From: Krischvirus LF73P4 | Sequence record: OZ035795.1 | Strand: one strand, 5' to 3' | DNA length: 64,000 bases | Part shown: piece after piece, positions 23,160 through 29,812 of the stretch | How positions within the stretch are numbered: the first letter of the stretch is position 1 | Layout of the letters: every line of letters starts with the position of its first letter | The notes under the pieces: generated by a model | What the model saw: only the letters and a program-made list of their open reading frames with translations | Told to the model about the DNA's origin: nothing | Database searches by the model: none | Position numbers and translations under genes: made by a program

Positions 23160-23420
23160 TCAAGCCTCCGTGATCAGTTCTACTTCCTCTTCTGCGTCTT
23201 CCGCTGCGTCGTCTTTAGGGAGAAGTGCTTTCACTTCTTCGACAATAGCATCAAGGGAAACAGTCCCGTTTTCGTCTGGCTGAATACCCAGAATGCGTAC
23301 CAGTTCCATCAATACACGCTCACGATCTTTCAGTTGGCCTTCTAAGAATGCGGCCTTTTCTTGAGTGTCAAACAGACGTACTTTCAGGACATTAATCATT
23401 TGTTCATGCTGATTGGACAT
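23160..23420 (-). CDS. gp57A-like coiled-coil chaperone (tail fibre assembly helper), tentative
   Basis: short acidic coiled-coil protein; LFDTQEKAAFL segment recalls T4 gp57A; synteny with gene 1. Confidence 0.45.
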   Translation of the reverse strand: MSNQHEQMINVLKVRLFDTQEKAAFLEGQLKDRERVLMELVRILGIQPDENGTVSLDAIVEEVKALLPKDDAAEDAEEEVELITEA

Positions 23421-23452
23421 ATTCACATCTCCTATTTGTTGATAACTTTTTA

Positions 23453-26071: not shown

Positions 26072-29000
26072 TTAGTCTTCCCAGATAAAATCTACGGTAC
26101 GAGTCAAATTATTGGCAATAATTTTAACATTACCAACCTTGATCCAATCACGAACCGTCATAGAGTTCATCAAACCACCTTCGGCAACCACTGCCCCGAT
26201 TTCCTGAGCGGTAGGCTTGTTCTGTTTGGTGTAAATTTCGCCCCATGCAGTCCATTGACCATCTGTACCGGAACGGATATAATGCTTATGAGTACCATCA
26301 GGCGACCAGATTTGGGTAAGGCCGTTTTCATCAGTACCCCATTGCATCAATGTACCATTTTTCTTTTCTGGGTAGGTTTCTTTGATGTTTTGGGTAGTAA
26401 CTCGCATATTCCAGAAACCGATGTTACCGATTGCCGGAGCGGTTGCCGCGCTAGCTTCATGCTTAACAGAAACAATAGGCGCATTATCCATAGTCAGCTT
26501 ACCGACCATTGTATCGCCAGCATTCTTAACAAACTGACGGTTAAGAACTTCGTCAGCGTTTCCTGCGTGTACGATCTGATATTTCTGTCCGGCGATCTCT
26601 GTAGTTAACGTTTGATGACCTGCCTTGATGTTAACACTTCCACCGTGACCGATATTCAGCATACCATCAGAGGAACGAGTCATCGCCGGATTAGACTGAT
26701 CAACAATGTACAAACCGCCTTGTTTCGCATACAGGTTACGACCTGCAATAAAGTCTCTATAGGCTAACGCATCGCCGTCATGTTCCATAGCAAAGGAGTA
26801 ATGCTCGACGACTCCACCATCACTGATTTTACCGAAAGCGATAGCATCACTATCAACGACTTGCGCTGTTCCAGTACCACCAACGATAATAGACCATGAG
26901 TTTTCCATACCTTCCGATGCGGTTGTGCCATGCAGAGTAATTCCGGTGTGACCGTCAACTCCACGCTCACCCAACACCAGATGACCATTACTCGGATCAT
27001 CAGTAGAGTTCTTAGTCACAGACAGAGTTTCAAAGGAACCAGATTTTAAGCACTCTAAATCGCCCTTCACGTTAACGTTTTTATTAAACGTGTAATTGCT
27101 CTCTATGATCTGGTCAATGTCTCTACGCGCCCATTTAGCGGCCTCTACGTTACCCAATTTCAAACTATTCTGAGCGGTTGCCATCTTAGGTAAGAAATTA
27201 GCAAGTGCGTAGTTTAATCCTTTCGGAGTAACAGCAATTCCGTCATGCTGGTAGTTTCCTAGTTCTTGAGTAGAACCTTGCAGATTATCACCAACAAAAC
27301 AGTTTTCCTGAGTAGCAACTTTCAAGAATCCACGACGCGCTTCGGTTGCTTTCCATGTATCCTCTGTCTGAACAACATATTTGAAGTTCTTCGGAGAAAT
27401 TGCTACATTAGCCAGTGTACCAGCCACGGTTTCGGCTTGAGTACCAACTCGGATAATACCTTCTTTACCTTCGGTGGCTTTTTTGCCTTGCAGCTTTTTA
27501 GGCGTGATGATTGTAGTATCATCTTGACCAGCGTCAGTAAGCTGACTAGTTGCAACTTTCGCGACACCTTTTGTATCTTCGGTTGCATCAAGACCACTGA
27601 TCATGATACCCTGCCACAAGTCACCAGTAAGGTTAAGTCCTTGAGTCGGATCTACTTTCAAACGCTGTGCGTTCTCAAAGAAGGTTTTAATCTTCAATGG
27701 AGTAGAAATGCGAGCGTCGTCACGACCTGCGTCAAATTCCGGTTGAGTTGCAATTTCTGCTAAACCATGTAAAGTTTCCGTAGCACGGCGAGTATGCAGT
27801 TTTTTAGGTGTGATAATATGGTTATCACTTTGGCCTAAGTTAGTTTCTTCCTGCGTAGCAATTTCAGCGATACCAGTACGGGATTCGGTAGCAGTACGCT
27901 TGGTTAACGTGCGAGTAGTGATCAGCAATGCATCTTGCGGGGTTGATTCAGTAGCCCCTTGCACTTCCGCGTCAGTTGCCAGATACCCAACACCACGAGA
28001 AGTTTCAGTAGCTTTAACTTCGTTGATGTTTTGCGGAGTAACGATTTTAGCGTGGTCGTTGATGTTATAGATCCCTGTACCAGCTTCACCCCTTAGAGCG
28101 GCAGCATTACCGCCTACCTGAACAATTTCAGCGATACCAGCAAGATCCTCTGACGCTCGACGCTCTTCTAACTTCTTAGGAGTGATTGCGCGAGTATCGT
28201 CTAAACCTTCGTTGGTTTCATGTTGAGTTGCAATTTCCATCACACCACGACGGTCTTCGGTAGCAACACAGTCATTTAACTTTTTAGGTGTAACGATAAC
28301 ATCATCCAGGAAGCTGGAACCAGTATCTTGATGCGTTTCCGCTTGAGTTGCAATGCGAGCAATACCGCGTCGAGTTTCGTTGGCTGTTTTATTAGCCAGA
28401 ACCTTTGGAGTCACCGCAACTTCGTCGCTAGGATTATCTTCATGGTTTTTGTTTGTTTCATCCTGGGTAGCCAGTGCAATTACACCAACACGATCTTTAC
28501 GTGTAGGATCTACTCGTTCTACAATCGGGTGAGCATGTGCAACCAACCAGTATTTCTTACCATCATCACCTTCTGAATAAGAGAACTCCAGATAAGGTAC
28601 ATAATCATTTGCAGCGTTGAAAGACAATTCAGACACTCCCGTCCATGTATCGGTCCCATTGAATGGGTACTCGCTACGCTTAGGAAACTGAACCATGTTT
28701 TTCTGCATAAGGATTTTTGTATCCTCTTCTGAGGTAACGATTCGGCAAGTCTGGTTTCCGTGCATATACTGCATAGAAACTTGGATACGATCACCCGGCT
28801 CGACATTGGTCGGTAAAGTCAAGGTAACATCACGATCACCAAATACTGCAACATAGCTATTAGGGGATAAGCGAGTATCACTAATGATAGGATTCAAGCG
28901 AACAGACTGATCGCCATCCCACAAACGCCATAAGTTTTCCGGTTTGTCAAAGATGAATACACCATGACCGCTACGCTTACCAACAATTTCTTTTACCCCG

Positions 29001-29812
29001 AAAGTACCGATCGATTGTTCTTGCGCACCTTCATGTACTTTTACTGTAACATGGTTGGTTGCAGTCAATCCGTCAAGATCGGTAGTCTGGATCATATCAC
29101 CGTTATTAGCAAACTTAGGAAGCATCAAAACAATGTTACCTAAAGAACTACGACGGAATACCTGATCACCGTTTTGCATCTGAATCGGATCAATAGATGG
29201 CTGTGCATATACCCCGCGCGGCTCCGTTCCCGTCTGGTAAACGTGCCAGCGATTGCGAACAAAAATGAAGTAGTTCATTGCATAAGGGGTAGTACAATAC
29301 CATTTGCGGTTGTTTACCACACCGTTATGATAGAACTCATGACCAGCCGCAAGGAACGATAACTCATTAACACCGCACTTGCCACCGATATCTTTTACTG
29401 TTATAGTGTCGCCCTCTGCCGGATTAGTAGGCATTGAGAATGTCAAGTTTGCAAACTGACAGTCCGCTGCGATATAATCACCGGACTTTAAAGGAGTATC
29501 GCCGGAAGTTGCTGCAACATAATCCCAACGTGGGTCCGTGCGCAGTGCTTGCCATTTAGTCGGGTCAAAGTCACCTGCTGGTTTTGCGATATCTTCTTTT
29601 GCATAATACGGACGGTTTTGATAGATTGTAGTTCCGTATTGATCATAACCGCGAGTTGTGTCATACTGAGTAATACCATTATGGTAATTGAAAAATTCAA
29701 CGTTGACCGCATCCGTTGATGTGTTTTTATCTGCGTATGCTACATTGACGACCTTTTCATTACCAGCGTCAAAGCCAAATGTGGCCTTGAAATGTTGAGA
29801 AAAATCTGCCAT
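26072..29812 (-). CDS. 34: long tail fibre proximal subunit (T4 gp34-like)
   Basis: KPAGDFDPTKWQALRTD, VQFPKRSEYP, RISTPLKIKT and repeated ATE..G.AEIATQ...ITPKKL fibre repeats match T4 gp34. Confidence 0.9.
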   Translation of the reverse strand: MADFSQHFKATFGFDAGNEKVVNVAYADKNTSTDAVNVEFFNYHNGITQYDTTRGYDQYGTTIYQNRPYYAKEDIAKPAGDFDPTKWQALRTDPRWDYVAATSGDTPLKSGDYIAADCQFANLTFSMPTNPAEGDTITVKDIGGKCGVNELSFLAAGHEFYHNGVVNNRKWYCTTPYAMNYFIFVRNRWHVYQTGTEPRGVYAQPSIDPIQMQNGDQVFRRSSLGNIVLMLPKFANNGDMIQTTDLDGLTATNHVTVKVHEGAQEQSIGTFGVKEIVGKRSGHGVFIFDKPENLWRLWDGDQSVRLNPIISDTRLSPNSYVAVFGDRDVTLTLPTNVEPGDRIQVSMQYMHGNQTCRIVTSEEDTKILMQKNMVQFPKRSEYPFNGTDTWTGVSELSFNAANDYVPYLEFSYSEGDDGKKYWLVAHAHPIVERVDPTRKDRVGVIALATQDETNKNHEDNPSDEVAVTPKVLANKTANETRRGIARIATQAETHQDTGSSFLDDVIVTPKKLNDCVATEDRRGVMEIATQHETNEGLDDTRAITPKKLEERRASEDLAGIAEIVQVGGNAAALRGEAGTGIYNINDHAKIVTPQNINEVKATETSRGVGYLATDAEVQGATESTPQDALLITTRTLTKRTATESRTGIAEIATQEETNLGQSDNHIITPKKLHTRRATETLHGLAEIATQPEFDAGRDDARISTPLKIKTFFENAQRLKVDPTQGLNLTGDLWQGIMISGLDATEDTKGVAKVATSQLTDAGQDDTTIITPKKLQGKKATEGKEGIIRVGTQAETVAGTLANVAISPKNFKYVVQTEDTWKATEARRGFLKVATQENCFVGDNLQGSTQELGNYQHDGIAVTPKGLNYALANFLPKMATAQNSLKLGNVEAAKWARRDIDQIIESNYTFNKNVNVKGDLECLKSGSFETLSVTKNSTDDPSNGHLVLGERGVDGHTGITLHGTTASEGMENSWSIIVGGTGTAQVVDSDAIAFGKISDGGVVEHYSFAMEHDGDALAYRDFIAGRNLYAKQGGLYIVDQSNPAMTRSSDGMLNIGHGGSVNIKAGHQTLTTEIAGQKYQIVHAGNADEVLNRQFVKNAGDTMVGKLTMDNAPIVSVKHEASAATAPAIGNIGFWNMRVTTQNIKETYPEKKNGTLMQWGTDENGLTQIWSPDGTHKHYIRSGTDGQWTAWGEIYTKQNKPTAQEIGAVVAEGGLMNSMTVRDWIKVGNVKIIANNLTRTVDFIWED

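Follow-up and report, generated by a model that had tools for sequence, protein, structure and literature searches.

Genes on either side of the junction

Judged by its sequence, the window (the whole 64,000-nt stretch analysed, from Krischvirus LF73P4, record OZ035795.1) is that of an ordinary Krischvirus, an RB49/JSE-like T4-type coliphage. On its minus strand we recovered the gene order that the first-pass annotation had read from the open reading frames, namely a gp34-like gene, two further genes, dNMP kinase, gp57A and acb1, with identities assigned by family searches (Table 1). Two features of a T4-type fibre module are present, a gp34 homologue and gp35 directly after it, and gp35 also shows 95–97% identity to two IMG/VR contigs. 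Alignment shows that the gp35 stop codon is the same as in the relatives, and the intrinsic terminator behind it is identical to that at the gene 35/36 site of JSE and of the IMG/VR relatives; positions 24852–24897, which hold this terminator, are the last sequence unique to the gp35 side.

Table 1. Features of the window and the evidence for each
Feature	Position in window	Strand	Basis
Block A	278..5690		JSE 121167-127044, same orientation; whole-genome blast
Block B	5605..24851		JSE 44907-65561, same orientation; 57B-57A-1-3 at its end; whole-genome blast
Block C	24743..51313		JSE 152500-126957, inverted; gp35, gp34, rnh ... gene 32 ... nrd ... ligase; whole-genome blast
Block D	51229..64000		JSE 44991-31430, inverted; whole-genome blast
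J1: R1, PeSL early promoter (TTGACA, stem-loop, TATACT, SD)	5605..5690	-	JSE 127.0-kb side joined to JSE 44.9-kb side; whole-genome blast
57B / Acb1, anti-CBASS phosphodiesterase, 154 aa	22693..23157 (ORF 23163-22693)	-	PF23474 E=1.5e-51; 100% identity to JSE 57B
gp57A, tail fibre chaperone, 86 aa from ATG	23160..23420 (ORF 23426-23160)	-	phrog_1002 E=3e-26, PF17594; 98.8% identity to JSE
Gene 1, dNMP kinase, 218 aa	23453..24109	-	PF21448 E=8e-68
gp3, tail tube terminator / tail completion protein, 196 aa	24125..24715	-	PDB 9mkb, PF06841, JSE gp3
Gene-3-specific leader: late-promoter-like AATAAATA and GAGG ribosome-binding site	24716..24742	-	Alignment of relatives
J2: R2, 109-nt repeat, three small hairpins, between fibre block and gene 3 block	24743..24851	-	
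Intrinsic terminator after gene 35, stem-loop and T-run	24865..24887	-	Terminator scan
gp35, long tail fibre proximal connector/hinge, 379 aa	24898..26037	-	phrog_1154 E=6e-128; 96.3% aa identity to JSE EpJSE_00252
gp34, long tail fibre proximal subunit, 1246 aa	26072..29812	-	phrog_972 E=0, full length; 95.7% aa identity to JSE gp34
J3: reciprocal R1/PeSL copy	51229..51313	+	Whole-genome blast; inverted pair I1, 95%

In JSE, in 2–3 IMG/VR contigs and in 58 GenBank relatives, gp36-gp37 lie directly downstream of gp35, whereas in the window they do not. Searches by tblastn with JSE gp36, gp37, the gp38-like adhesin, gp2 and the holin gave no match anywhere in the 64-kb window, and the distal fibre gene is therefore truly absent from it, as the first-pass annotation had noted for gp37; the distal fibre genes must be encoded outside the window, elsewhere in the record, a location that annotation had also considered for the receptor-binding component. 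The 196-aa protein on the other side of the junction matches T4 gp3 in the PDB (9mkb/9mof/9x3p, ‘gp3, tube terminator protein’; E=8e-47 over residues 3–171), matches PF06841 above its cut-off, falls in a tail-tube family in the family search, is 100% identical in amino acid sequence to JSE gp3, and lies beside gene 1-57A-57B, where gp3 is also found in T4 and in JSE (63.4–65.4 kb, same order). It belongs to the gene 1/57A/57B block and not to the fibre module. We also considered this protein as gp36 and rejected that assignment on the match to 9mkb and the JSE identity.

These assignments bear on the proposal, made in the first-pass annotation, of an alternative long-tail-fibre module that dispenses with gp36 and gp37 and uses the 379-aa or the 196-aa protein as receptor binder. 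The one observation in its favour is that gp36, gp37 and the gp38-like gene are missing from a window that spans only ~40% of a roughly 165-kb genome. The 379-aa protein is a standard gp35 (96% to JSE); the 196-aa one, which has the sequence of JSE gp3 and a match to the structure of T4 gp3, is the tube terminator. Neither is a candidate for receptor binding, and every relative with gp35 and gp3 also has gp36-gp37. We regard such a module as extremely improbable. The same annotation had foreseen that the two proteins might prove to be standard gp35 and gp36 with gp37 beyond an assembly break; standard proteins are what the homology searches returned, with gp36 and gp37 lost across the break, the exception being that the second protein is gp3. 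Of its suggestion of a rearranged or alternative fibre module, the first half holds, as the order differs from T4 and from all close relatives, and the second does not.

Comparison of the two halves with the known loci shows where the likeness ends. With the JSE/RB49 fibre locus (rnh, 34-35-36-37-small ORF-t) the window shares the divergent rnh/gene 34 arrangement, gp34/gp35 at 96%, the gp35 terminator and then R2; R2 is followed in JSE by a TATAAATA late promoter and gene 36, and in the window by gene 3 with its leader, while gp36, gp37 and the holin are absent. With the T4/JSE cluster 57B(acb1)-57A-1-3-2-4 it shares the stretch from 57B to gene 3, equal in order and orientation and 99–100% identical to JSE at the protein level, whereas upstream of gene 3 it has gp35 where the JSE cluster has ORF84, a homing endonuclease and gene 2. 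The T4 late promoter consensus is TATAAATA, and by comparison with it the AATAAATA of the gene 3 leader probably works as a late promoter. What was read as a fibre module joined to gene 1/57A/acb1 is a breakpoint in the gene order.

Block layout and repeats at the junctions

Mapping the window onto JSE by whole-genome blast gave four blocks and three junctions (J1, J2 and J3), each of which overlaps sequence found at both parental sites. The gene 3/1/57A/57B block occupies 63.3–65.6 kb of the JSE genome, and gp34-gp35 occupy 147.2–152.5 kb on the opposite strand, so that the fibre half and the gene 3 half of the junction are ~87 kb apart and in opposite orientation in the relatives. One simple inversion was tried as an account of the layout and is ruled out by this four-block layout with its three junctions.

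J1 and J3 lie in the repeat R1. Alignment shows that J1 joins the upstream flank of site a to the downstream gene of site b, and J3 the upstream flank of site b to the downstream gene of site a; the two are exact reciprocal products, both inside the window, whereas the reciprocal of the R2 junction (ORF84-R2-gene 36) would fall outside it. PeSLs (promoter-early stem-loops) are defined in PMC2839356 as multicopy elements with a strong sigma-70-type promoter and a stem-loop, located between small ORFs in hyperplastic regions. Elements at 5641–5690 and 51229–51283 carry TTGACA, a 17-nt hairpin spacer and TATACT, and PeSL-type repeats recur in many copies among the small ORFs of the window (families D1, D3 and D4; pairs I1–I13). 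By its promoter, stem-loop, copy number and setting between small ORFs, R1 has the sequence characters of a canonical PeSL cassette: TTGACA, a GGGGAT..ATCCCC hairpin in the spacer, TATACT, and a leader with SD at both J1 and J3.

J2 lies in R2, which matches JSE 65453–65561 at 100% and, inverted, JSE 152391–152500 at 93.6%. R2 is present in 58/58 Krischvirus records, where it precedes gene 3 as well as gene 36, and it occurs in no phage record besides these. It is not a PeSL, because it lies upstream of late genes, and is a previously undescribed late-gene upstream repeat. The three small hairpins are supported by folding (z=-3.8), and a search of Rfam for a known RNA gave only Phage_DGR (17 bits, E=0.95), far under the gathering score. 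Among the exact repeats of the whole 166-kb JSE genome, R1 (63 nt) is the longest and R2 (49 nt) comes second; within the window, no exact repeat exceeds the R1 pair (55 nt). From the relatives we estimate the exact R2 core at ~49–67 nt. Judged by site-specific variants, the R1 exchange falls in the 55-nt core and that at J2 on the 5' side of the ‘AGTAG’ of R2, the 3' part of R2 bearing the gene-3-site variants in an alignment of relatives; both placements fit recombination and misassembly alike.

Junctions in relatives and in independent assemblies

None of the three junctions is spanned in any of the 58 GenBank Krischvirus records (0/58), nor does any other contig carry one of them; in the GenBank records gene 2 precedes gene 3. 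At another ~40 places in ENA, NCBI and Logan, near gene 3 or either R1 site, the order is standard throughout. A J2-specific pattern had 0 matches in viral, metagenome and genome contigs, the standard-arrangement pattern being present in viral contigs; the metagenome scan is uninformative, because that control also gave 0 there. The two papers that contain both ‘Krischvirus’ and ‘inversion’ do not deal with genome inversions, and a literature search with the accession of run ERR12949693 gave no paper.

Two ENA scaffolds begin exactly at the 3' edge of R2 and the pEJ01 GenBank record stops ~18 nt past it, and R2 is therefore a recurrent assembly breakpoint. Logan contig ERR12949693_6, from an independent k=31 assembly, is 100% identical to window positions 24822–32037 and stops exactly 30 nt into R2; given its length of 14,292 nt, its far end is calculated to fall in a 32-nt repeat at 39084, again after ~30 nt. 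A k=31 graph that branches at these two places yields just such ends. Logan contigs stop at every repeat of at least 31 nt, so the J2 adjacency is beyond their reach. A 163-aa protein of the left block (window 16112–16603) was found on no ERR12949693 contig, two protein look-ups having failed to show the left block in that run, and the link between run and record is thus established for the right block only.

The closest relatives differ by block (GoldenSnicker and FL04 at 99.4% for the left block, KMB43 at 97.8% for the gp34/35 block). This, the failure to find the 163-aa protein on the ERR12949693 contigs, and the PeSL mini-circles that attest to recombinant molecules during infections (PMC2839356) could point to a heterogeneous or chimeric DNA preparation, in which two related Krischviruses, or minority recombinants, were mixed in the consensus path. 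Differing best relatives along the genome are, however, normal mosaicism in the genus, all junctions fall exactly in repeats and not at arbitrary points, and the window holds no duplicated or conflicting genes; we consider a mixed preparation very unlikely.

Origin of the block order and its implications

The order of the window was probably produced by a wrong path through the repeats during assembly. The gp34, gp35 and terminator segment comes from one region and gp3, gp1, gp57A and Acb1 from another, ~87 kb off and inverted, the two being fused seamlessly inside R2. All three junctions are ‘alternative exits’ from R1 and R2, and an alternative exit at both repeats gives one of only three routes by which the four unique segments can be closed into one circle; the assembler, or manual merging of contigs, would have taken the wrong path at both R1 and R2. 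The real phage would then be arranged as its relatives are, gp35 leading straight into gp36-gp37. In the record, gp36 and gp37 should be found at the other R2 copy, outside the window; if this path was taken, the reciprocal junction (ORF84-R2-TATAAATA-gene 36-gene 37) is predicted ~60 kb past one of the window's ends. We infer assembly rather than biology as the cause from features shared with repeat-induced mis-joins in de Bruijn graph assemblies of small circular genomes, such as those that give alternative orientations around inverted repeats: the breakpoints lie at the longest exact repeats, independent assemblies fragment there, and the order forms one closed circle. The window differs from such cases in that its exact cores (55 nt; ~49–67 nt) are short enough for many current pipelines to resolve.

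Several observations weigh against a mis-join. The junctions are seamless, with J1 and J3 reciprocal, the downstream genes keep their promoters and the upstream genes their terminators; such junctions are also expected from real homologous recombination, and the product should be viable. T4-type phages recombine very actively, and a modern assembler with k of at least 77 would resolve exact cores of 55–67 nt directly. The tie of ERR12949693 to the record through the right block alone belongs on the same side.

A second reading, which we consider possible but unlikely, is that the order is genuine and arose when the phage inverted large parts of its genome twice by homologous recombination. Recombination between the inverted R2 copies would flip ~87 kb, and the R1 PeSL copies, thereby made an inverted pair, would recombine second; the same order would result if the genome split at R1 into two circles that were re-fused at R2. 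The breakpoints lie in the best homologies available, with the repeat at both parental sites for R1 and R2 and the junction inside it (in JSE and relatives), J1 and J3 are exact reciprocal products, and the resulting order is a consistent single circle. The promoter and terminator architecture is intact at J2, and gene expression would be preserved because each repeat has a terminator on its upstream side and, downstream, a promoter specific to the gene that follows. PeSLs are documented recombination hot spots in RB49 and phi1 (PMC2839356), and T4-like core modules function in different orientations in other genera (PMC2993671). Two independent rare events would nevertheless be needed, neither of which is seen in the 58 GenBank genomes, 3 IMG/VR contigs and ~40 other places, and the coincidence with the two longest exact repeats and known contig breaks is a classic misassembly signature.

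In RB49/phi1, PeSL cassettes are the agents of a modular shuffling of genes (Arbiol et al. 2010, PMC2839356; Comeau et al. 2014, PMC4122927), and PeSL-PeSL exchange has been demonstrated experimentally (PMC2839356). The documented exchanges are local (gene gain, loss, replacement and mini-circles), whereas in the window the partners are 82 kb apart and the reordering is genome-scale. Under either origin, the locus gives no pointer to a new receptor-binding system. If the order is an artefact, as we think probable, the finding is one of quality control: the record would have to be corrected before use in synteny, taxonomy or host-range (tail fibre) work, and R1 and R2 marked as repeats at which assemblies of Krischvirus genomes break off or are misled. 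If the order is true, two inversions of ~80–87 kb each, via the PeSL pair and R2, would have occurred in a genus that is otherwise colinear in roughly 60 sequenced genomes; this would be a clean natural case of cassette-mediated large inversions in a T4-type phage, and would stretch the PeSL shuffling model from single genes and local shuffling to half-genome segments.

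Gene content at the fibre/gene 3 join

Megablast comparison of region 22600-30000 with 50,697 phage records returned matches in 58 Krischvirus genomes only (93-99% identity), which are RB49-, JSE- and phi1-like coliphages. In 58 of 58 records the query divides into two places, with the sequence up to ~24760 matching the gene 3 region and the sequence from 24743 on matching the gp34/35 region. In JSE, a Krischvirus of the RB49 type, these places are 63311-65561 (+) and 152500-147243 (-), ~87 kb apart and in opposite orientations, and both are matched by window 24743-24851 (junction J2). 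Comparison of the entire window with the complete JSE genome (blast) gives four blocks, J2 being one of three junctions.

Blocks, junctions and genes of the window (for blocks, the sign gives the orientation relative to JSE)
Feature	Window	Strand	Length	JSE position or match
Block A	278-5690	+		JSE 121167-127044
Block B	5605-24851	+		JSE 44907-65561
Block C	24743-51313	-		JSE 152500-126957
Block D	51229-64000	-		JSE 44991-31430
Junction J1	5605-5690			within R1
Junction J3	51229-51313			within R1
gp34		-	1246 aa	phrog_972, E=0
gp35, proximal connector		-	379 aa	phrog_1154, E=6e-128; 96.3% identical to JSE gp35
gp3, tail-tube terminator		-	196 aa	PDB 9mkb 'gp3, tube terminator protein', E=8e-47; Pfam gp19 family; 100% identical to JSE gp3
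dNMP kinase (gene 1)		-	218 aa	PF21448
gp57A		-	86 aa	PF17594
Acb1/57B		-	154 aa	PF23474
NUMOD4/HNH_3 homing endonuclease	14921-15514	-	197 aa	
CYTH-domain protein	31033-31632	+	199 aa	PF01928, E=5e-6; hypothetical in JSE
DUF4326 protein	36521-36838	+	105 aa	E=7.5e-23
nrdA-nrdB insertion	39115-39967		~850 bp	
ORF in insertion	39134-39730		198 aa	C-5 cytosine DNA methylase (partial), PF00145, E=5e-19, model positions 66-164 of 324

The first-pass annotation had proposed a rearranged or alternative fibre module without a gp37-like distal gene, and the minus-strand ORFs that it named are present where it placed them. The distal gene is indeed absent, as gp36, gp37, the gp38-like adhesin, gp2 and the holin are all missing from the 64-kb window. 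The order differs from that of JSE. gp34, gp35 and the terminator after gene 35 are all of the standard type. Neither protein put forward as a receptor-binding candidate retains that role: the 379-aa protein is gp35, and the 196-aa protein, which might have been the expected gp36, is gp3 by its structural match and its identity to JSE gp3, and therefore not a fibre protein. The order 57B-57A-1-3 is the usual T4/JSE cluster, leaving gene 35 beside gene 3 as the sole abnormal adjacency at this locus.

Accessory genes and insertions

The CYTH gene lies between rnh and dsbA in an otherwise T4-like replication/late-transcription gene run, and the DUF4326 gene is located between td and nrdA, where the window has no alignment to JSE. 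Compared with JSE, the window has an insertion between nrdA and the nrdB region, with a 32-42-nt direct repeat on either side; its 198-aa ORF, over which a 257-aa ORF runs in a different frame, is possibly a methyltransferase gene that has been truncated or frameshifted.

The JSE gp38-like adhesin EpJSE_00081 (Gp38_N and GP38 domains) is encoded far from the fibre locus, in a hyperplastic region flanked by PeSL elements. Its locus (JSE 47023-47932) corresponds to window 7724-7762, where ~38 bp with a PeSL replace the gene; since some relatives carry the gene and others do not, it is a polymorphic accessory host-range gene. The homing endonuclease gene, flanked by nrdC.11-like and vs.6-like genes, occupies a site that in JSE holds another homing endonuclease gene (EpJSE_00101), to which it does not align, so the occupant has been swapped. 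A ~240-bp direct repeat in the small-ORF hyperplastic region (625-862 and 3895-4134, 85-89% identity; JSE 121514-121751 and 124993-125231) is the longest dispersed repeat of the genome, though less exact.

Repeats R1 and R2 at the junctions

J1 and J3 fall in R1, a pair of repeats located in JSE at 44910-44999 and 126961-127054 (93.6% identical). The R1 layout, AAAAAAGTTG-TTGACA-GGGGAT..ATCCCC-TATACT-leader-AAGGAG-ATG, is that of the PeSL early-promoter stem-loop cassette described for RB49 and phi1 (PMC2839356), and PeSL copies are numerous across the window. J1 combines the upstream flank of one R1 site with the downstream gene of the other, and J3 the converse; the two are reciprocal products, and 0 GenBank records span either.

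R2, a 109-nt element, has two inverted copies in JSE (65453-65561 and 152391-152500, 93.6% identity) and was found in 58/58 Krischvirus records and in no other phage of the collection; comparison with Rfam gave no family match. It contains three hairpins (GGTTA..TAACC, GTGCC..GGCAC and GTCGC..GCGAC) with conserved stems and variable loops. In an alignment of relatives the two sites share one layout: the gp35 terminator lies upstream at one and the divergent ORF84 at the other, R2 comes next, and a late promoter and RBS particular to the site complete the series (TATAAATA before gene 36, AATAAATA before gene 3). At J2 a single R2 (window 24743-24851) separates the gp35-side flank from the leader of gene 3. 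The 3' part of this copy carries gene-3-site variants, which places the switch in the 5' part, a stretch of roughly 67 nt that is almost the same at both sites. Two further tandem copies of the first ~64 nt of R2 (JSE 102130-102187 and 102274-102337) sit in a 415-bp gene-free gap between EpJSE_00169 and EpJSE_00170.

With X, S2, S3 and S4 denoting the unique segments between repeats, JSE reads X-R1-S2-R2-S3-R1-S4-R2'- and the window S3-R1-S2-R2-S4'-R1'-X'. From the whole-window blast we infer that the alternative exit was taken at both R1 and R2, which equals two inversions in succession, R2 first and then R1, and is one of only three single-circle threadings of the four unique segments.

Origin of the window order

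The window order is probably caused by misassembly, in which a mis-threaded four-contig graph would yield exactly this order in a single step. Ranked by exact length, R1 (63 nt) and R2 (49 nt) lead all repeats of the entire JSE genome, and within the window the R1 pair (55 nt exact) comes first. Only one other public contig, Logan ERR12949693_6, encodes the exact gp35 protein; it matches window 24822-32037 at 100% identity and stops precisely 30 nt inside R2. By arithmetic on its length (14,292 nt), its other end lies ~30 nt inside a 32-nt repeat at 39084. Both ends are k=31 graph behaviour at a branch, and the matching read set therefore has two different R2 entries with the path left unresolved. 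Two ENA metagenome scaffolds begin exactly at the R2 3' edge, and the pEJ01 record stops ~18 nt past R2.

J1, J2 and J3 were absent from 58 GenBank genomes and 3 IMG/VR contigs, as well as from ~40 additional places around gene 3 and the two R1 sites in ENA, NCBI and Logan sequences. Scans for J2-specific patterns gave 0 matches; the control was positive in viral contigs but found nothing in the metagenome set, so the metagenome zero carries no weight.

About 50 nt of homology is enough for T4 recombination, the exchanges at the junctions are seamless and reciprocal, and every gene retains its own promoter and terminator, all of which would suit a genuine double inversion. PeSL-PeSL recombination has been demonstrated by experiment (PMC2839356), and in other genera T4-type core modules tolerate differing orientations (PMC2993671). 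A double inversion nevertheless requires two rare events, neither of them seen among ~100 other observations, and we consider it unlikely; a mixed or chimeric template as the source of this order is very improbable. The fibre/gene 3 join most likely does not represent biology. Whether the order is real or an artefact, the second R2 copy should be followed by gp36-gp37 and their own TATAAATA promoter.

The genes of the window and the PeSL repeats are already known. R2, conserved and doubled upstream of late genes, is a minor unexplained finding; it may serve as an insulator/terminator cassette for late genes or as a site to which a protein binds. If reads prove the order real, the window would be a case of cassette-mediated macro-inversions.
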